The notes beneath the pieces are model-generated. The model worked only from the letters and a program-made list of their open reading frames with translations, searched no databases and had not been told where the DNA came from. The position numbers and the translations under genes are program-made. DNA of 64,000 bases from Escherichia coli. GTDB taxonomy: Bacteria; Pseudomonadota; Gammaproteobacteria; Enterobacterales; Enterobacteriaceae. The stretch lies in assembly GCF_036507355.1 (NCBI RefSeq), contig NZ_AP027877.1, one strand, 5' to 3'. Positions 8,069 through 45,202 of the stretch are shown here, piece by piece (the stretch's first letter is position 1; every line of letters begins with the position of its first letter).

Positions 8069-9169
8069 ATGAAATTAAAAATAGTTGCGGTGGTTGTAAC
8101 TGGTTTGTTAGCTGCGAACGTAGCACACGCTGCCGAAGTCTATAACAAGGATGGTAATAAACTCGACCTTTATGGCAAGGTTACCGCTCTACGTTATTTT
8201 ACTGATGATAAGCGTGACGATGGTGATAAAACTTATGCCCGTCTCGGCTTTAAAGGAGAAACGCAAATCAATGATCAAATGATTGGTTTTGGTCACTGGG
8301 AATATGATTTTAAAGGCTATAACGATGAAGCCAACGGCTCGCGCGGCAACAAGACCCGTCTGGCCTATGCTGGTTTAAAAATTAGTGAGTTTGGCTCTCT
8401 GGACTATGGTCGTAACTACGGTGTCGGCTATGACATTGGTTCATGGACCGATATGTTGCCAGAATTTGGTGGCGATACCTGGAGTCAGAAAGATGTCTTC
8501 ATGACATACCGTACCACCGGTGTAGCAACCTATCGCAACTACGATTTCTTTGGCTTAATTGAAGGGCTGAACTTTGCCGCGCAATATCAAGGCAAAAATG
8601 AACGTACTGACAACAGTCATCTTTATGGTGCAGACTACACGCGTGCCAACGGTGACGGTTTCGGTATCTCCTCAACTTATGTTTATGATGGCTTTGGTAT
8701 CGGTGCGGTATATACCAAATCCGATCGGACAAATGCGCAGGAAAGAGCCGCTGCTAATCCTCTTAATGCCTCCGGTAAGAATGCAGAACTGTGGGCCACA
8801 GGTATAAAGTATGATGCCAACAACATCTACTTTGCAGCTAATTACGCTGAAACATTAAACATGACCACCTATGGCGATGGTTATATCTCGAACAAAGCAC
8901 AAAGTTTTGAAGTGGTGGCGCAATATCAATTCGACTTCGGCTTGCGCCCATCACTCGCTTACCTGAAATCGAAAGGCAGAGATCTGGGCCGCTACGGCGA
9001 CCAGGACATGATTGAGTATATCGACGTTGGTGCGACGTATTTCTTCAACAAAAATATGTCGACCTATGTTGATTATAAAATCAACCTGATTGATGAAAGC
9101 GACTTTACCCGTGCCGTAGATATTCGCACCGATAACATCGTCGCAACGGGCATTACCTATCAGTTCTAA
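8069..9169 (+). CDS. yddL: General porin of the OmpC/OmpF/OmpN family (intact counterpart of the K-12 yddL pseudogene)
   Basis: 366-aa ORF, signal peptide ending [20 protein letters not shown]-terminal YQF; position between yddG and the LRR genes. Confidence 0.75.
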
Positions 9170-9182
9170 CATCCTCTCCTGA

Positions 9183-9208
9183 CCAGCCCTTCTCTGGGCT
9201 GGTTTTTG
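9183..9208 (+). terminator. Rho-independent terminator after the porin gene
   Basis: CCAGCCC-ttctct-GGGCTGG stem followed by TTTTT. Confidence 0.55.
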
Positions 9209-9338
9209 ATTTAAGTGCTGCTGTATGACTCCTTAAGTAAAAATGAGCAATTTTTGATATTTCTGGTCATTCACCTCAATTAATATTATTCCATACCCTC
9301 CGGGGACATCTTACTATAATATTTATTGATGAGTGATT

Positions 9339-10598
9339 ATGACCAATATTAATACAGCTTGTGTAAAAAATAATGCCAGTTATCAATTTAATAACGCATC
9401 AACTAACAAAGAAACCATCTCCAGCAATTTTTGTGAACGACTAGAACAATGGGGTAATAAGTCGATTAATAATGGTGAAGAAAGAGCAATTGCCGTGGAG
9501 CGAATTAAAGAAGCTTACAATTCGAACATGGCATCTCTTGATTTGTCATATCTTGATTTGAGTGAGTTGCCGCCTATCCCTTCGACAGTTAATACGTTAA
9601 ATCTGGAAAACAATTGTCTAACTTGTCTTGACTTTGCTGACAATGCTAGTCTCGTCAATATCAACCTCAGCTTTAATAAAATTAACACGATAACCTTTCC
9701 AAATGAATCAAATCTGGAAAACATTTATATTGATCATAACAATCTGGAAAGTTTAGATTTAAAAAATCAGCATTCATTGGTTAATCTGGAAGCGCAAAAT
9801 AATAACCTAAAAAAAATTAATATTTCTGATAGTCATAAACTGAAATTTCTTAATCTTGATTATAACAAACTATCATCACTGGATGTCTCCCGGCAAGAGT
9901 CTCTGATTGAGTTAAGTGCCCATCACAATATGATCACTGACCTTATATTACACAATCATCCCAGGATGAAAACAATCACTTTAAACGACAACCATATTGC
10001 ACATTTAAACACCAAAACCACTACAAAACTTGAATATTTAAACTTAAGCAATAACAATTTATTGCCAACCAATGACATTGATCAACTAATATCATCAAAA
10101 CATCTTTGGCATGTATTAGTTAACGGCATCAACAATGATTCACTTGCACAAATGCAGTACTGGACTGCAGTAAGAAATATAATTGATGACACTAATGAAG
10201 TGACCATTGATTTATCTTATAATCTGGCAATCACAAATATCGATACCAGTGATGAACATCTTGTAGAAGTAAGCGATAATTCCGAAGGTAATTATATAAA
10301 AGACAATGACTCAATGTCTATTCGTTATAGATCCAAATATTATTCCAGAGAGTATACCTTAATAGAAGAAGAAACAATATTTTCTGACGCAGAATTAAAA
10401 GCTATTCTGCCTATGCGTCGCATGTACGGGGTTGGTGACTATAAGTCAAATTCCTCTTCTCTATCCTCACACTCGGGGCTCAAGGACCCAACGGGCACAC
10501 CCGTCTGTTATTATATTCATAATGAGAGTAAACCTTCCTTAGGTTATGGTCCAACATGCAATAATTGGTTAAGCCAATCCTTTACAACAGAGTTATAA
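9339..10598 (+). CDS. yddK: Leucine-rich repeat protein with IpaH/YopM-like N-terminal cap
   Basis: Repeating LxxLxLxxNxL units of ~20-22 aa; N-terminal W..W...EER..AV.RIKE..........LDLS.L.L..LP pattern; low GC; synteny (start could also be GTG 9333). Confidence 0.65.
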   Translation: MTNINTACVKNNASYQFNNASTNKETISSNFCERLEQWGNKSINNGEERAIAVERIKEAYNSNMASLDLSYLDLSELPPIPSTVNTLNLENNCLTCLDFADNASLVNINLSFNKINTITFPNESNLENIYIDHNNLESLDLKNQHSLVNLEAQNNNLKKINISDSHKLKFLNLDYNKLSSLDVSRQESLIELSAHHNMITDLILHNHPRMKTITLNDNHIAHLNTKTTTKLEYLNLSNNNLLPTNDIDQLISSKHLWHVLVNGINNDSLAQMQYWTAVRNIIDDTNEVTIDLSYNLAITNIDTSDEHLVEVSDNSEGNYIKDNDSMSIRYRSKYYSREYTLIEEETIFSDAELKAILPMRRMYGVGDYKSNSSSLSSHSGLKDPTGTPVCYYIHNESKPSLGYGPTCNNWLSQSFTTEL

Positions 10599-10660
10599 AA
10601 CACATCCTGATTTATCAAGGGTGATAAATCAGAAAAACATTGTATTACTACGGAGCAGTT

Positions 10661-24078: not shown

Positions 24079-24560
24079 TTACGAAAGCCCGCTCCCCGCA
24101 AGGACTGACGCCAGATAGTTTCTGTCCATGGCTGCTTTTCGCATCTTATGTCTTAACCCTGCCTTGAATACCTTATCATTCGTCAAAATATTAATAGCAA
24201 TGTGCCGTATCCCTGGAAATAATTCTGCTGCATTTCCTCTTCTTATTTTGCAGTCGTCTTCATTCATTACCACGTCCAGACGCCAGTGCAGCTTATTCTC
24301 CACGTGCCAGTGGTTTCGGATTGCTGTGGCGAACTTCTCTGCGGTTAAATCAGCAGAACTGATATAATATCTGACCGTCATTTCTGGCTCTTTCTTTTGT
24401 TCTGCTATTATGGACCGAAAGGAGACTGCCACGCATAATTTCTTCAGCCCTTTCCATTCAAACGTGAAATCAATAAGTTCATCAGGAACATCGCAAACAA
24501 TATGAAGACGGATTTCTTCTCTGCCGTGACTAAAATGCGAATTATTTAGTACAAAAAAAG
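24079..24560 (-). pseudogene. 3' remnant of an H-repeat / ISAs1-family transposase gene
   Basis: ORF 24079-24432 encodes ...[43 protein letters not shown]..., the conserved C-terminus of H-repeat proteins such as YdcC; further matching residues continue upstream in a shifted frame; N-terminal two-thirds absent. Confidence 0.6.
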
Positions 24561-24636
24561 CGGCGCACCTTGTTCTTTCCCAGATTCCTAATATGGCAAC
24601 TTTAAGTTATCGCCGTCTATACTTATAGAAATTTCA

Positions 24637-25092
24637 TCAGGGGTGACATAAATAGAATTTTTTTTCATCCTCAATTGCCCATAACTGATTAATAAAAAAG
24701 TGTTTTTTATCATCTAATAACAAATCATCACATGTAGTAAAATTATTAATATCAAAAAAATCATCAGCACAATTAATTTTTAAATTTAAAAAATAAAGAA
24801 AAATATTATTGATTGATTTGAGTGTAAACCACTTGTCATTAACAAATTTATAGCCAGATGATTTTATAAAATAATAATTATCTCCTGGTATAAAGGCATA
24901 CATATCATTTAAGGTTATACTCAACAAAAAACTACGACCTGGTTTAATAGTATTCCAGCGTTCAGGATTCGTATTAATTTCAAAAGGACATGAACCACCT
25001 AAGTAGTCCAACGTGATATTCCCAGAGTTGATCCTGGATGGTTTTTTGCATATCGCATCATATTCATCTCCTTTTCCATCTTTTACTTTCAT
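24637..25092 (-). CDS. Hypothetical protein (151 aa), AT-rich, translationally coupled to the upstream small ORF
   Basis: Start ATG overlaps the stop of the upstream ORF (ATGA at 25089-25092); no recognisable motif. Confidence 0.4.
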   Translation of the reverse strand: MKVKDGKGDEYDAICKKPSRINSGNITLDYLGGSCPFEINTNPERWNTIKPGRSFLLSITLNDMYAFIPGDNYYFIKSSGYKFVNDKWFTLKSINNIFLYFLNLKINCADDFFDINNFTTCDDLLLDDKKHFFINQLWAIEDEKKFYLCHP

Positions 25093-25379
25093 AGGTAGAT
25101 AATATTTAGAAAAAAATACGTGGTAGAGCTATTGTTAGTAAAGGTTATGTTAGCAAAAATCCTGTTATTTTTTTTACTCATAGCTAATTGAGCATTGACA
25201 TCCGCTATATAATTTATATGATTACATTTTTTCTTACACTCATCATAATTTTCGATAGGATAAATTAATGGCCTTCCTTTGATATCTCTCTCAAGCCCAA
25301 ACCCGTATTTTTTTATTAAAACCATTTCATCCGCAGTCGATTGAAAGGAATAGAAAAATATAATATTTACGATTGTCAT
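25089..25379 (-). CDS. Hypothetical small protein (96 aa), AT-rich
   Basis: ORF only; hydrophobic N-terminus; coupled to the downstream ORF. Confidence 0.35.
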   Translation of the reverse strand: MTIVNIIFFYSFQSTADEMVLIKKYGFGLERDIKGRPLIYPIENYDECKKKCNHINYIADVNAQLAMSKKNNRIFANITFTNNSSTTYFFLNIIYL

Positions 25380-25431
25380 TATTATGATTTTTTTATAGCT
25401 TGCAGCATTAATATATTTCTCGACTTATTAG

Positions 25432-26280
25432 TTAATGGAGAAGTGTTTTTTCTAATTCCGCTATTTTTTTCTTAACTGAATTGCTTAATATTTCATCATT
25501 AATCGAGTCTATCTCACTTTCAATTAATCTTATTTCAAAATATCTTTCTATGTTATATGCATTCTCAAATATTTGATCTTTTTGTTTAGAGATCAGTTTA
25601 GTTGCAATACGGATATGTTCGTCATATGAAACTTCATCCTCTTTGCACGTTGAATATTTATCAGTAGTTGTATAATCCTGTGACCACATACCACCTTTTT
25701 TATTATCCCCATAATACCACTGAATATGAGACATTTCATGACATAAAGTAGCAACATGAGAATCCTTTCCCGTTACTGGATTTTTTTTGCCATCTCTATA
25801 CTCAAATTTTGCGCCTATGTTAATTATATAGGGCATATCCTTACTTGGGCTGACGAATGCTGCAAATTCATTACAACCTGTATAATTTATAAAACTGCTC
25901 ATTGTTAAATCATTAGCTATAATCATTAATCTTCTCACGCCATCCATCATAAGAAATCTAGCATTCATGCGCCTACCTGTATTATGTCCATATTTTCTTA
26001 TATTAACTTCCTTATTTCCTTTAACACCAAAGATCTTACTGAAATAATATTCCTCCTGTGCTCCCCATCTCAAAAGATCATCTGCTCTTTTTATCAAAAC
26101 CAACTTTTGTGCCTTACGAGCCTTATCAATCATTATTTTAAAATGATCAGTTATTTTTTGCTCTTTCACACATTCTTCTGGCTCTGGCTTTGGTTGTCCA
26201 GAAGTTTGATTATTATCGTCCATAGTGTCCTTCCATTGAGAGAAAATCATCATTCGCAAATAGCAACTAAAAAGCAGCAT
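25432..26280 (-). CDS. Hypothetical protein with HExxH motif (putative zincin-like metallopeptidase or toxin domain)
   Basis: Motif ATLCHEMSHIQWYYG; ~30% GC; true start may be the internal MDDNNQ (26223); function inferred from motif only. Confidence 0.45.
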   Translation of the reverse strand: MLLFSCYLRMMIFSQWKDTMDDNNQTSGQPKPEPEECVKEQKITDHFKIMIDKARKAQKLVLIKRADDLLRWGAQEEYYFSKIFGVKGNKEVNIRKYGHNTGRRMNARFLMMDGVRRLMIIANDLTMSSFINYTGCNEFAAFVSPSKDMPYIINIGAKFEYRDGKKNPVTGKDSHVATLCHEMSHIQWYYGDNKKGGMWSQDYTTTDKYSTCKEDEVSYDEHIRIATKLISKQKDQIFENAYNIERYFEIRLIESEIDSINDEILSNSVKKKIAELEKTLLH

Positions 26281-26410
26281 TACTTGACCTTTCCCTGCAT
26301 AACAATATTTATAAAATAATACGTTTTATGATCTCACCTTGGGCTCCCAACAAGATAATTTCAGTTTTAAAGACTTTCACGAAAAAAATATAGAAATACC
26401 TCACCACCCT

Positions 26411-26701
26411 TCACTTACCAATTAATCTCACAGGAAATCCAACTTCCTTACCACAAATACAATCCCAAGTAACACCTCCCAAAATTTTTGATACTTTAGG
26501 CTGCAATGGCATTATTGACATTATAAATTTATCAAGTTCTTCGCTATATTTAATTCCCTTTATATTTCTTATTATTGATATTCTAGCAGTAAAGATAGCC
26601 GTCTCTCCATCTACACTAAAAGTGTAATTACAATTTTTTGTAATCTCATCAAATTCAACCGATAACAAATCAATATTATGGTTTGTAAACACTATGCCCA
26701 T
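26411..26701 (-). CDS. Putative immunity protein for the upstream effector
   Basis: 96-aa ORF whose start overlaps the effector 3' end by 26 nt; call rests on position and size only. Confidence 0.4.
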   Translation of the reverse strand: MGIVFTNHNIDLLSVEFDEITKNCNYTFSVDGETAIFTARISIIRNIKGIKYSEELDKFIMSIMPLQPKVSKILGGVTWDCICGKEVGFPVRLIGK

Positions 26702-28115
26702 TCCATACCTCCTTAAATTCCTGTTCAGTCATCAGATATCGACTCCCTTGATATGGATCATATATTATCACATTCCCAGCATCATCAACACCCTTAACAA
26801 GTACCCAATGCCCTACTTTACTTCCAGAATCCCACATCATTGCTCCCCATGAACCAGTATTACTGAGGGCATATAAACTAGATTCGCTCACTGCATTCCC
26901 TTCCCAGCCGACATCAAATTTATTAAGCTTGTTTGCCAGCGACGTCATAGATGTTAATTCTGTTCCAATTACATTTTGCGTGACAAAAATATACCTATCC
27001 CTAAGCAACATTTCCCCACAGGCCGCTCCACAGCCTGTTAAAGTCAATTGCTTTATTACATTTGAATCTAAAACCTCATCAAATACTGTCCAATTGCCAC
27101 CAGCACCACCTTCTAAAACTACCGGCTCTACAAATACTTTCCCAGAGATATTTTCTTCTGGTATTTTTGCGGGTATCATAAAGCCCCATAAAAAGCTGGC
27201 AAAATGCTCCAGAGCAATCTGATCACCATTATTTGCATCCATTATCATTTTTTTAAGTGCATCCCATGCTTGCCCATTTATCAATGAATCACTAATATTA
27301 AATAAAGCCTGTTCTTTTTCGTTTAAATTTATATTTGCCTGTTCACATAACCCATCTTCGCCTATCGGGCAAGCAACCGTTGCCGTTGCCGTATCTAACA
27401 GAGCATCGAATGTAACTAAGGCTAAATCCGCCACACCATGTAAAGTGGTGATTGCTCCATTCCCCATTTGAGTAAGTGTGTTCTCTACAAACCATTCTCT
27501 AATTTGAGATTTATCTCCTTCAATATCATTCCTGAGAGATTCTCTGATATTCTTTATTGAAAAAAACTCCCCCCATGATTGGTCAGGATCTTTTATTTGG
27601 AATAAATCATTTTTAACCTCAGGTGAAATATCTCCGTCAAAAATATTACCAACAGAGAGGAGATCCTTCAGAAGCAGTAAATCGTGTATTACTTCAGCAG
27701 TCCTTTCATAATTAAAAGTTCTATCAATGACAGAAATCATTGGTGATTTTATTTTGGTATATAATTTACCAAGGCAGTTATGGTTATTAATCCCAACAAC
27801 TGAACCATGATAAGCGACAGGTCTCCCCTCTATTGTTACAGTCGGACTTCCCGTTAAAATAACGCAGTCACCTGTTCCTTGAGATGTACCAGATATGACA
27901 CCTTTACCGGCATTACTTTGAGTTCCAGCAATCACTGAACCAACATTTAAAGCTCTGCATCCACGCGCCCATACCGTTGAACTGTACTGCCTTTCACTAT
28001 CTAAAGTCTGGTAACTGTCAAAAGGAACCTTGTCACCTCCTACTTCACATACATCTGGTGAAGAGCACACGACTTTAAATCTACATTCACCATCCCCGAT
28101 ATGATAGCTACCCAT
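26676..28115 (-). CDS. Putative T6SS effector: N-terminal DUF4150-type PAAR-like domain, C-terminal C39-like papain-fold Cys peptidase domain
   Basis: N-term SPDVC...VPFDSY...GKGVISGTSQG...TVTIEGRPVAYHGSVVGINNHN resembles the DUF4150 pattern; C-term GCGAACGEML and GHWVLVKGVDD...IIYDP resemble Cys and His motifs of C39/papain-like peptidases; downstream of vgrG. Confidence 0.6.
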   Translation of the reverse strand: MGSYHIGDGECRFKVVCSSPDVCEVGGDKVPFDSYQTLDSERQYSSTVWARGCRALNVGSVIAGTQSNAGKGVISGTSQGTGDCVILTGSPTVTIEGRPVAYHGSVVGINNHNCLGKLYTKIKSPMISVIDRTFNYERTAEVIHDLLLLKDLLSVGNIFDGDISPEVKNDLFQIKDPDQSWGEFFSIKNIRESLRNDIEGDKSQIREWFVENTLTQMGNGAITTLHGVADLALVTFDALLDTATATVACPIGEDGLCEQANINLNEKEQALFNISDSLINGQAWDALKKMIMDANNGDQIALEHFASFLWGFMIPAKIPEENISGKVFVEPVVLEGGAGGNWTVFDEVLDSNVIKQLTLTGCGAACGEMLLRDRYIFVTQNVIGTELTSMTSLANKLNKFDVGWEGNAVSESSLYALSNTGSWGAMMWDSGSKVGHWVLVKGVDDAGNVIIYDPYQGSRYLMTEQEFKEVWNGHSVYKP

Positions 28116-41896: not shown

Positions 41897-42070
41897 TTAA
41901 AACAGTGAAAACAACAGCGCCACCGGGAAACTCATCGGCCATGTTGCCCCCACCAGAAAGGCGCTTAAGAAACGGATGCGTTTCTTATCGTGAGAAAGAA
42001 ACCAAGTGATAAGAAATGCGATTGCTGCCATAACCGCATAAAAAACAAGCATGTGTTGATAGAGAGACAT
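41897..42070 (-). CDS. ortT: Small membrane toxin OrtT (orphan toxin related to TisB)
   Basis: 57-aa hydrophobic ORF MSLYQHMLVFYAVMAAIAFLITWF... Confidence 0.75.
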   Translation of the reverse strand: MSLYQHMLVFYAVMAAIAFLITWFLSHDKKRIRFLSAFLVGATWPMSFPVALLFSLF

Positions 42071-42758
42071 GTACGGGCGTCCAGCCAGATGAATAAAACG
42101 CGCGCAAATATGCGTCATTTTTTGACGTGCATCAAGTTTTTTAACCGGTTTGAGAAAAAAACATCAAACAGCAACTTGCCCTTATCCATCTTCAGAATGA
42201 GTATTATTGCGGATTTTCTTAACCCGTACTATACACATAGGGGCAATGATAAAAGGTGGCAAAAATGAATGTTTCCAGTAGAACTGTAGTACTGATAAAT
42301 GTCTTTGCTGCTGGTTTGTTTACTCTTATCTCTATGAGATTTGGCTGGTTTATTTGATGTAGTGATTTTGCACGCAGCACGTACTGTCAGAGAAATCAAC
42401 TCTCTGACAGTACGCAAGATCTTCTCATACTCTCCAGGTTTACAACATTATCCTTAATATTTACTTCTTTTTGCTGGCATCTACATTGAAATGAGTAGAA
42501 AACATCCCCCTACTGTCGTCTATACAAACAGCTTACTGATTCAAAGGGAATCTTGTTTTCACATTTTTCTATCATGAATACTTTATACGCGCGGGAGTCT
42601 ATAAATGCTTTATACTTTCAAGGAATAACGTAAATATAAAAAGATGGCGTGAAGTATATGCATGGCAGGATGTTTGCAACCTCCTTGATGACGCTGCCCC
42701 ATTGAAATTGCAAACCCCGCCCTGGTTATCTTGCCCATTTATCATGCAAAACAGATAA

Positions 42759-43568
42759 TTATAGGCCTCTGAATACCTCAGAAAGATTGAATTTTTTATA
42801 GTCCCTCTCTTGAATATTTCCATTTGATATCAATCGATTCATCTCTTCAACAAAATAATTTATATCATCACACTTGTTATTATCCGGAAGATCTGAGTAG
42901 TTATAATTCCACCATTTTATTCTCAACAGTTCATCAATAACATTTGAATCAAACCTAAATCTGATTATTTTTGCAGGAACTCCTGCAACTATGGCATATG
43001 GGGGCACATCTTTGGTAACAACGGAATTGGCAGCAATAACAGCACCATCACCTATTGCGATGCCACCTTTCAATACAACATCATTTCCTATCCAGACATC
43101 ATTTCCTATAATCGGATTTTCAGGTTTGGTAATGAATGGTTTCAATGTCCAGCTACGTTCAAACTCACTCATAGCAAACTTATCAAATTCACCGTTATAA
43201 GTCATCATGTGAGTAGTAAAACGATTCAAAGGATGATTTCCACCCATTATTTTTACATTTGATGCAATACTACAAAATCGACCTATACGTATATTCCCTG
43301 AAAAATGACAGGTCGGAAATGAAAAAGCGCCGACACTGGAGAAATTTTTTACAGGCATTGTTGAATATTCTTCAGCAATAACATTATCTTCAATTGTTAT
43401 CTTGTCACCTTTTGAGAAAAGAAATAAATTCCTTTCTTTATACGACTTCTTCCCCTTATGATTTAAAAAGATTTTATTATCCATACAAAACTCAAAGTGT
43501 TTTTTCGTCCATCTGAAGGTAAGGGTTTTATTTTTATCTTCCGTGAATTTGTACAATTGAACTTTCAT
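42759..43568 (-). CDS. Hexapeptide-repeat (left-handed beta-helix) acetyltransferase, XAT/Vat-like
   Basis: Repeating [LIV]-G-x-x-x-x units (IGNDVWIGNDVVLKGGIAIGDGAVIAANSVV) and PPY motif; ~33% GC versus ~52% flanks; no gene annotated between ortT and patD in K-12. Confidence 0.6.
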   Translation of the reverse strand: MKVQLYKFTEDKNKTLTFRWTKKHFEFCMDNKIFLNHKGKKSYKERNLFLFSKGDKITIEDNVIAEEYSTMPVKNFSSVGAFSFPTCHFSGNIRIGRFCSIASNVKIMGGNHPLNRFTTHMMTYNGEFDKFAMSEFERSWTLKPFITKPENPIIGNDVWIGNDVVLKGGIAIGDGAVIAANSVVTKDVPPYAIVAGVPAKIIRFRFDSNVIDELLRIKWWNYNYSDLPDNNKCDDINYFVEEMNRLISNGNIQERDYKKFNLSEVFRGL

Positions 43569-43777
43569 TGTTAATACTTCTACTTATAAATTATTAATTT
43601 AATAACGATACTCTAAAGCCTTATGCTAATCAACTGTGACAGGATGAAAAATCGCCATCAAACATTTAGCCTAATTTTTACGCTAGTTATTAATGTAATC
43701 ATTCTAATACTTAACCGCCATTAAACTCAGAACCTAAAACGATAGTGGCCGTCCTATAACAGCCACTAACATCTAAC

Positions 43778-45202
43778 TTAATGTTTAACCATGACGTGGC
43801 GGACGACGGTGTAATCCTCCAGCCCATAAAGTGACATATCCTTGCCGTAACCAGAAAGTTTCTGCCCACCGTGCGGCATTTCACTTACCAGCATGAAATG
43901 GGTATTGACCCAGGTACAACCATATTGCAGCCGTGCACTGACGCGATGCGCCCTGCCCACATCTTTCGTCCATACCGAAGATGCAAGTCCGTACTGGCTG
44001 TCATTCGCCCAGTTTACCACCTGTTCTTCGTTGTCGAAGAGCGTAACACTCACTACTGGACCAAATACCTCTTTTTGCACGATGGCATCGTCCTGTAATG
44101 CGCCAGCCAGCAGCGTCGGCGCATAGTAATAGCCATTACCCTTGCGCTTTTCACCGCCAGTGATCACTTTGATGTGCCCTGTCGCTTTCGCCTCTTCTAC
44201 TGCCTTGCTGACGCGTTCGAGATGCGCCAGCGAGCTTAAAGGCCCAAGCTCCGTAGACTCGTCATCCGGCGCACCCGATTTTAACGTTGCCACCGCAGCA
44301 CCGAGTTTTTCCACCAGCGTATCGTAAATGCCTTTTTGCGCGTAGATCCGACAGGCCGCAGTACAATCCTGTCCGGCATTGTAATAGCCAAATGTACGTA
44401 CACCTTCGACCACTGCTTCAATATCCGCATCATCAAAAACAATCACTGGCGCTTTGCCACCAAGTTCCATATGAGTATGCTTAATGGAGGGCGCGGTATG
44501 GCTGATGATGTGCTCGCCGGTGGCGATAGAGCCCGTCAGCGACACCATCCGCACTTTGGGATGACCGGTCAGCGGATCGCCCACCGTTTTGCCTCTGCCA
44601 AACAGTACGTTAATCACGCCTGCCGGGAAGATATCTTTCGCCAGCTCTGCCAACTTCAACGCGGTCAGCGGGGTAATTTCTGATGGTTTAAGCACTACGC
44701 AGTTCCCTGCCGCCAGCGCCGGAGCAAGTTTCCACGCTGCCATCATCAGCGGATAATTCCACGGTGCGATAGAAGCCACGACCCCCAACGGATCGCGACG
44801 GATCATCGAAGTATGACCTTCAAGATATTCACCTGCCGCCAGACCATTCAGACAGCGCGCCGCACCCGCGAAAAAGCGAAAAACATCGACAATCGCCGGG
44901 ATTTCATCATTGAACGCACTATGCAGCGGTTTGCCACAATTACGGGACTCCAGTTCGGCAAAAACCTGACCATTTTCTTCGATTACATCAGCCAGTTTCA
45001 GCAGACATTCCGCACGCACTTTCGGCGTGGTTTGCCCCCATTCGGCAAATGCTGCATCTGCCGCGCGCACAGCAGCATCGACCTGCTCTGCGGATGCCTC
45101 GGCAATCTCCAGTAAAACGTCCCCCGTTGCCGGATTATAGACAGGCTGTTTTTCCCCTTCGCCGCTAACCAGTTCTCCGTTAATCAGTAACTTATGTTGC
45201 AT
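43778..45202 (-). CDS. patD: Gamma-aminobutyraldehyde dehydrogenase
   Basis: 474-aa aldehyde dehydrogenase family ORF; synteny. Confidence 0.9.

Follow-up and report, generated by a model that had tools for sequence, protein, structure and literature searches.

In the 64,000-nt stretch of Escherichia coli DNA analyzed here (contig NZ_AP027877.1 of assembly GCF_036507355.1; hereafter the window), an AT-rich islet between yncL and patD carries a gene for a left-handed β-helix acetyltransferase of the xenobiotic acetyltransferase (XAT) class. The islet was found in 1,154 of 5,426 complete E. coli genomes (21%), always at the same chromosomal site, and it is an old presence/absence polymorphism whose gene is under purifying selection. 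The reading that we prefer, and to which we assign a probability of about one-half, is that the product would be an acetyl-CoA-dependent acetyltransferase with a small-molecule, xenobiotic-type acceptor that is neither the classic Vat nor the classic CatB substrate. More than 1,000 genomes already have an annotation for the gene, which is an uncharacterized accessory gene and not a recognized resistance gene.

An XAT-class acetyltransferase outside the characterized families

The acetyltransferase gene has a GC content of 33.3% (28.9% at third codon positions), and its product matched the Pfam Hexapep family with an E value of 4.4e-13. The best NCBIfam matches were TIGR03308 (131 bits), Vat (125 bits), CatB (106 bits), and ApmA (83 bits), with lower scores for WbbJ, LacA, Maa, CysE, and WcaF, which matched only residues ∼150 to 205. 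A search of the PDB returned VatD as the best match (6.6e-30, residues 61–230), followed by VatA, CatB, ApmA, and PaXAT. The similarity to Vat, CatB, ApmA, and PaXAT spans ∼170 residues and includes the catalytic loop, whereas that to sugar and amino acid acetyltransferases is confined to the hexapeptide core of ∼50 residues. Enzymes of the XAT class acetylate chloramphenicol and streptogramins. A preliminary description of this region, made from the window alone, had assigned the protein to this class, and the assignment holds: VatD, VatA, CatB, and ApmA are its best solved relatives, and no housekeeping sugar or amino acid acetyltransferase is its best match. Because the curated cut-offs were missed by wide margins (125 bits against 300 for Vat, 106 against 350 for CatB, and 83 against 550 for ApmA), the protein can be filed in the class but in no characterized family, and membership in any of these three families was not borne out.

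An AlphaFold (AF2) monomer model built on 65 relatives had a predicted local distance difference test score (pLDDT) of 91.6 and a predicted template modeling score (pTM) of 0.87, and its top structural matches were again Vat, CatB, and ApmA. In the model, an N-terminal strand-helix cap (residues ∼15–30) and a linker are followed by the left-handed β-helix, which starts at residue ∼56, and by three C-terminal helices; the catalytic loop comprises residues 112 to 150 and contains a helix at 126 to 136. His112 aligns with VatD His82 and Trp159 with VatD Trp121, the former being the catalytic residue of VatD and the latter lying in its acetyl subsite (bioRxiv 10.1101/2025.01.31.635826, PMC7885111). 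Both residues are invariant or nearly so among the 65 family members, with His112 present in at least 90%. By analogy with the Vat, CatB, and ApmA structures, this soluble β-helix enzyme would work as a trimer with acetyl-CoA bound at the subunit interfaces; the general base would be His112, located on the extended loop, and the acetyl group would pass to a small molecule, at a hydroxyl or possibly at an amine.

The protein exceeds Vat and CatB in length by 59 to 60 aa. The preliminary description had placed an extension of ∼60 aa at the N terminus; only ∼33 to 36 aa of the excess are N-terminal. Relative to the CatB profile the additional residues are distributed as ∼36 at the N terminus, ∼5 in the loop, and ∼18 at the C terminus, and relative to VatD as ∼33, ∼6, and ∼22. 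The N-terminal module (residues 1 to ∼58) contains a conserved FRWxKxH motif. A profile of residues 1 to 78 gave nothing significant in the PDB or Pfam and did not retrieve ApmA, and among 1.84 billion proteins the N-terminal profile retrieved 37 cluster representatives only, mostly of 260 to 360 aa.

Distribution, age, and selection

Flanks of the site were matched in 5,415 of the complete genomes. The site is empty, with an identical junction, in K-12, BL21-type, O157:H7, and O145 strains and in the B2 type strain JCM 5491; as the preliminary description supposed, the gene is thus not one conserved at this site in all E. coli, there being no copy in K-12 and carriage of only ∼21%. The carriers form three allele groups. 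The largest comprises 945 genomes with at least 99% identity to the window, including O8, O91, O103:H2, and O111 strains, and we take it to be mostly phylogroup B1. The second comprises ∼200 genomes at 95 to 96% identity, among them 118UI, NMBU-W13E19, and SCU-313, which are listed as nearest references of sequence type 69 (ST69) isolates (PMC7952442); from this ST69 link the group is probably phylogroup D. Six genomes at 90 to 95% identity make up the third, of which one, strain 2017-02-2CC, was looked at. The exact window protein occurs on at least 1,000 contigs; among its database names are "antibiotic acetyltransferase," "CatB-related O-acetyltransferase," and, in one case, "putative acetyltransferase [Shigella flexneri]." One copy of the gene with 100% identity lies on a 1.5-kb contig (L018) of a "Collinsella sp." metagenome-assembled genome and is almost certainly binning contamination.

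The left and right junctions are identical in all three carrier allele groups, and the islet therefore has a single origin. In comparison to 118UI, the acetyltransferase gene of the window is 97.8% and patD 96.1% identical; in comparison to 2017-02-2CC, the values are 95.2% and 95.1%, with synonymous divergences (dS, Nei-Gojobori) of 0.20 and 0.21, respectively. Since the divergence of the islet tracks that of the neighboring patD, the islet is not a recent import; either it has been at the locus since the haplotypes split or it has moved together with patD by homologous recombination. The term insertion, used in the preliminary description in the sense of a gain, consequently gives way to that of an old presence/absence polymorphism, given three deeply diverged haplotypes, identical junctions, and a dS matching that of patD. 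In one scan of 100,044 species genomes, by which empty sites are not detectable, the gene was found in no other Escherichia species representative, and this result mildly favors gain within the species; that the most divergent haplotype carries the gene mildly favors antiquity. The locus is thus an unameliorated AT-rich polymorphism that co-diverges with its core neighbors, and it cautions against reading "low GC, absent from K-12" as evidence of recent acquisition.

The ratio of nonsynonymous to synonymous divergence (dN/dS) was 0.085 to 0.117 among the E. coli alleles and 0.075 to 0.088 in comparison to Citrobacter sp. (L003), and values of ∼0.1 indicate purifying selection on the acetyltransferase gene. 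These values bear on the proposal that the islet is a decaying, functionless remnant of horizontally acquired DNA. Disrupted alleles do exist: an in-frame loss of 30 aa that takes out the catalytic-His region and leaves a 239-aa product (L050 and L051, 2816–3535), and IS1 copies that interrupt or adjoin the gene in several genomes, with both main allele groups represented (decay-allele genomes H55, H58, H62, H110–H120, and H183). Moreover, the islet is AT-rich and so probably silenced by H-NS, and most E. coli do without it at no obvious cost. However, dN/dS is held at ∼0.1 over a dS that reaches 0.20 within E. coli and ∼1.5 to 1.8 relative to Citrobacter, the 269-aa length is constant across genera, the promoter elements are kept, and the exact protein is found on the many contigs noted above. 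We regard a functionless remnant as already disfavored and very improbable.

Boundaries of the islet

From ortT (41897–42070, minus strand) to patD (43778–45202, minus strand) the GC content falls to 28 to 39%, as compared to a window mean of 48.4%; that of 42120 to 43777, the segment originally reported, is 34.7%, and that of patD is 53.4%. Both the low-GC segment and the gene in it were confirmed, but the reported extent of 1.66 kb was wrong. Genome comparison showed the segment missing from K-12 to be a length difference of 1,324 bp (approximately 42464–43787), made up of the carrier-unique DNA listed in Table 1 and one copy of an 11-bp repeat, and the patD start positions (3782 in locus L001, 2458 in locus L002) support the same difference. 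The left 345 bp of the reported segment are conserved core DNA with yncL; by alignment, positions 42120 to 42433, which hold the ortT-yncL intergenic region, yncL, and a hairpin, are kept in K-12, O157, and B2. Because yncL sits in this conserved left part, ortT and patD are not neighbors in K-12 as had been stated in the preliminary description: the two genes are 386 bp apart with yncL inside the gap, and yncL and patD are convergent over 96 bp, where the hairpin at 42380 to 42414 was the sole one seen. RefSeq annotation places yncL between ortT and patD both in K-12 and in a genome of 99.4% identity at this locus. The window yncL encodes 30 aa, as compared to 31 aa in K-12, owing to an in-frame deletion of one codon (Val17), and carries F13V in addition. 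The flanking gene products are OrtT (PF10753), YdcY (DUF2526), and the aminobutyraldehyde dehydrogenase PatD (TIGR03374, 1035 bits).

Table 1. Positions in the window of the islet, its gene, and the associated sequence features
Feature	Position	Strand	Basis and details
AT-rich islet, carrier genomes only	42464–43776	−	1,313 bp, 34.2% GC; alignments with K-12, O157, and one B2 strain
XAT-class hexapeptide acetyltransferase gene	42759–43568	−	Intact open reading frame (ORF), 269 aa; RefSeq "CatB-related O-acetyltransferase"
Candidate own promoter	43605–43633	−	−35 TTGATT (43633–43628), 17-nt spacer, −10 TATCGT (43610–43605)
Long imperfect hairpin ∼40 nt past the acetyltransferase stop	42664–42721	−	RNA fold of 42600–42765 (minus strand): −42.9 kcal/mol, z = −2.45
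Terminator-like hairpin, islet-supplied, directly past the patD stop	43743–43768	−	Terminator scan; fold −20.3 kcal/mol, z = −3.06
Left copy of 11-bp flanking direct repeat	42453–42463		CTTAATATTTA; junction comparison
Right copy of 11-bp flanking direct repeat	43777–43787		CTTAATGTTTA; overlaps the patD stop and last codons; junction comparison
13-bp occupancy-linked block	42434–42446		CCAGGTTTACAAC in carriers, TACGATCTGCAAT in empty alleles
yncL, core gene outside the islet	42265–42357	+	RefSeq annotation of near-identical genomes; translations
Perfect 14-bp-stem hairpin 3′ of yncL, core DNA	42380–42414		Inverted-repeat search; present in K-12, O157, and B2

The flanking repeats have the consensus CTTAAT(A/G)TTTA, and the two copies are identical at 10 of 11 positions. 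Just outside the left copy lies the 13-bp block, in which 7 of the 13 positions distinguish occupied from empty alleles; the block is constant within each class across lineages whose patD genes differ by 3 to 6%, a pattern that, judged from the alignments, appears to fit neither a clean insertion nor a clean deletion.

Several kinds of mobile unit were considered for the islet and rejected. An attC-like pair of core sites (RYYYAAC … GTTRRRY), as in an integron cassette, was not found 3′ of the gene, the counts of the motifs being at chance level. Neither terminal inverted repeats nor a transposase, as in an insertion sequence (IS) or transposon, were found, and the acetyltransferase is the sole gene found in the islet. 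For carriage of the E. coli allele on a plasmid or phage, the one near-identical "plasmid" match was in fact a chromosome of 4.9 Mb entered as a plasmid, and the phage matches to the E. coli acetyltransferase all had less than 45% identity. Rfam gave no match at E ≤ 1 in the non-coding flanks of the islet, and the PADLOC models of antiphage defense matched 0 families.

Promoter-like elements and hairpins

The candidate promoter ends 36 nt 5′ of the ATG, and a promoter scan gave an overlapping candidate at 43617 to 43590. GTTGAT and TAT..T do not vary in an alignment covering five genera (Escherichia, Citrobacter, Raoultella, Enterobacter, and Cedecea). At the nucleotide level, the E. coli and Citrobacter copies are similar over the gene and ∼80 nt 5′ of the ATG and no further; since the similarity is limited to the gene and the upstream stretch with the promoter-like elements, the transferable unit is taken to be promoter plus gene. 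Downstream of the gene, the long imperfect hairpin is a possible terminator or stabilizer of the acetyltransferase transcript, a terminator being the more conditional prediction for a structure with no adjacent U-tract. Two small ORFs (42599–42823 and 42610–42738) in the 325-bp downstream segment overlap the 3′ end of the acetyltransferase gene out of frame and were judged to be non-genes; this segment is less conserved than the gene (95.1% versus 97.8%).

The terminator-like hairpin past patD is kept in all three carrier haplotypes. A transcriptional overlap, or "excludon," is on record for the convergent genes patD and yncL in K-12 (PMC12288877), whereas in carriers they lie 1.4 kb apart and yncL is convergent with the acetyltransferase gene instead. 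The islet thus splits the convergent patD-yncL pair, and patD gains a hairpin of its own. Taken as a whole, the islet would be a self-contained, AT-rich single-gene unit, with a σ70-type promoter, the gene, and a hairpin, that resembles a phage "moron" and is placed between the convergent genes yncL and patD.

Relatives, genomic contexts, and proposed function

Full-length relatives of 269 aa with 70 to 80% identity were found in Citrobacter, Raoultella, Cedecea/Enterobacter, and Salmonella, relatives at 46 to 57% identity in Providencia, Kluyvera, Apirhabdus, Pectobacterium, Rahnella, Dickeya, and Brenneria, and relatives at ∼40% identity in Firmicutes. The gene is solitary, and its neighbors differ among Escherichia, Citrobacter, Cedecea, Rahnella, and Apirhabdus. 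In Citrobacter it is flanked by a GNAT gene and, on the opposite side, by PNP_UDP_1, MFS, and Tsx genes; in Cedecea and Rahnella the relative is 3′ of a chemoreceptor gene, and in Apirhabdus the genes on either side are unrelated. The whole-domain similarity to Vat, CatB, and ApmA and the solitary state of the gene in most genomes are the grounds on which we favor a small-molecule acceptor, a solitary context being typical of stand-alone detoxifying enzymes, unlike the genes of polysaccharide clusters. With a different drug-contact loop, a family-specific N-terminal cap, and a longer C-terminal tail, the enzyme would act on an acceptor other than the Vat and CatB substrates.

Some of the more distant relatives, at 37 to 55% identity, occupy accessory positions in prophages. 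In a P2-like provirus (L058, 6001–6786) a relative with an N-terminal frameshift lies on the opposite strand between the tail-fiber and tail-sheath genes, which is the "moron position 2" of P2-like phages (PMC3573123). The Kluyvera relative (L054, 5001–5798) is directly 3′ of tail-fiber and tail-fiber-assembly genes, and another (L060, 2277–3101) adjoins an endolysin gene. In Providencia prophages (L010–L012, 5001–5804) the relative belongs to a fixed three-gene block with a GT52 glycosyltransferase that follows a Gp10_C tail protein. These locations suggest an alternative, which we consider possible but clearly less probable than a small-molecule acceptor: that the protein is a surface-glycan O-acetyltransferase of phage origin, acting on lipopolysaccharide, enterobacterial common antigen, capsule, or a precursor, and altering a phage receptor or antigen. 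As with NeuO, it would serve superinfection exclusion of the lysogenic-conversion type or immune evasion, and the gene now in the E. coli chromosome would be a moron that either stayed behind or was relocated there. The prophage accessory sites of the relatives (P2-like moron position 2 and the Kluyvera tail-fiber region), the GT52 partner in Providencia, the moron design of the islet (own promoter, hairpin, AT-richness), and the detectable relationship to NeuO and OatWY all agree with such a role. Against it, NeuO, WbbJ, WcaF, and the maltose and galactoside acetyltransferases match the hexapeptide core only (1e-10 to 1e-13), as compared to 1e-30 over the whole domain for Vat and CatB; no glycosyltransferase or polysaccharide gene adjoins the gene in E. 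coli, Citrobacter, Cedecea, or Rahnella; and the carriers cover many O serogroups (O8, O91, O103, O111), so that only a conserved glycan could be the substrate. Bona fide Vat-family genes are also found in phages, and therefore location in a phage does not by itself discriminate between the two readings.

A divergent but genuine resistance enzyme for chloramphenicol (CatB-type) or streptogramin A (Vat-type) appears improbable to us. Its nearest solved and curated relatives are indeed Vat and CatB, the catalytic His and Trp are kept, and the names given in databases include "antibiotic acetyltransferase" and "virginiamycin A acetyltransferase," the latter for a relative. On the other hand, the Vat and CatB bit scores are those already given, identity is only ∼30 to 35%, the N- and C-terminal modules are absent from Vat and CatB, the streptogramin-contact residues are not kept (bioRxiv 10.1101/2025.01.31.635826), and the literature searched held no report tying the carrier lineages to such resistance.

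Some of the observations also weigh against the small-molecule acceptor that we prefer. The scores are far below the cut-off of every curated resistance family, and because all six streptogramin-contact residues of VatD are replaced, the known substrates of the class are not predicted for it. Insensitivity to streptogramins is intrinsic to E. coli, and hence no clear selective benefit would arise from their acetylation. The positions of relatives at 37 to 55% identity near tail-fiber genes or GT52 fit receptor or glycan modification as well as they fit detoxification. Finally, searches of the literature on the RefSeq name, on XAT in E. coli, and on the yncL/patD/ortT locus found no study of the gene.

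A broader proposal, which we put forward only tentatively, is that the family constitutes a fourth functional branch of the XAT class, marked by the FRWxKxH cap and spread as a moron through enterobacterial prophages and chromosomes, with a substrate new to the class that may be an antibiotic or toxin or else a phage-receptor sugar. Were this so, about one-fifth of E. coli, including serogroups associated with Shiga toxin-producing strains (O91, O103, and O111), would carry a latent determinant of resistance or phage exclusion. If the enzyme inactivates a drug or toxin, it would be a chromosomal determinant that scores under all curated cut-offs and is missed by antimicrobial resistance pipelines in more than 1,000 E. 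coli and in Shigella flexneri; if it modifies a surface glycan, the phage susceptibility or antigenicity of the carrier lineages would be affected.

Other features of the window

Across 20000 to 44900 no end-to-end match was present among complete E. coli genomes, the best having 93% coverage and 98.2% identity, even though other genomes match the acetyltransferase locus at 99.4% identity; this suggests that the 25-kb stretch is a mosaic. In E. coli ET350 (L001, 1–1578), the closest genome at the locus, ydcZ is cut by an IS3-family element; the window ydcZ is intact. A stretch on the minus strand (24079–28115) contains a PAAR-like toxin gene with a Peptidase_C39 domain (26676–28115), after which come low-GC ORFs with no Pfam match (25432–26280 and 24637–25092), where the window GC reaches its minimum of ∼29%, and, at the end, a transposase remnant (24079–24432). 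Judging from a related genome, this stretch belongs to a variable Vgr/PAAR islet of a type VI secretion system. On the plus strand, a segment of ∼34% GC (8069–11914) holds a porin gene and two tandem leucine-rich-repeat genes and adjoins a gene for an EamA-family transporter.

Comparison with known systems

With Vat (VatD, 1KHR; VatA, 4HUS) the islet protein shares the β-helix, the extended loop bearing the catalytic His, the GNDVW motif, and a C-terminal helical region with a WW motif, at ∼32 to 35% identity and 125.3 bits relative to the NF000311 cut-off of 300. Its loop is ∼6 aa longer, and ∼33 N-terminal and ∼22 C-terminal residues are additional. The six streptogramin A-contact residues of VatD (listed in bioRxiv 10.1101/2025.01.31.635826), P90, N92, L93, P103, L108, and P109, correspond in a phmmer alignment, which is uncertain in the loop, to H120, M122, T123, S134, F145, and I146.

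In comparison to the type B chloramphenicol acetyltransferases CatB and PaXAT (3EEV, 6MFK, and 1XAT), for which it scored 106.3 bits relative to the NF000490 cut-off of 350, the islet protein has ∼59 extra residues, divided between both ends and the loop, and its gene has no attC and is not an integron cassette. The match to ApmA (7JM0, 7UUJ) gave 83.1 bits relative to the NF000084 cut-off of 550 and covered only residues 70 to 230. The N-terminal region of ApmA comprises 82 aa, versus ∼58 aa in the islet protein, and the two have no detectable sequence similarity. Firmicute relatives, considered as a bridge to ApmA, were rejected as such, their pattern of scores being that of the E. coli protein. 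That the islet protein is an ApmA-like aminocyclitol or aminoglycoside N-acetyltransferase, its pocket reshaped by the added N-terminal domain, seems to us a very slim prospect.

TIGR03308 ([quoted passage not shown]) is the top NCBIfam model for the islet protein and for its Providencia and Firmicute relatives. The islet protein scored 130.9 bits, as compared to a cut-off of 201.65, over residues 92 to 228 only; the neighbors of its gene are yncL and patD, with no phn genes nearby, and the model is a hypothetical equivalog without an established function.

The polysialic acid O-acetyltransferases NeuO and OatWY are likewise soluble hexapeptide-repeat enzymes and are detectable relatives of the islet protein; NeuO is prophage-encoded (PMC3046976), the prophage being CUS-3. 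The neaT gene of E. coli CFT073 offers an analogy of design only: it too is an AT-rich, unameliorated acyltransferase gene with its own regulation and a patchy distribution, and it lies at the P2 "moron position 2," in the gap between the tail-fiber and tail-sheath genes and in the opposite orientation (PMC3573123). NeaT is a membrane protein of the Acyl_transf_3 family (PF01757) and is non-homologous to the islet protein, and the E. coli islet is outside any prophage. In comparison to phage morons in general, the islet has the promoter-gene-hairpin design and the AT-richness, yet the genes on both of its sides are core genes and not those of a phage.

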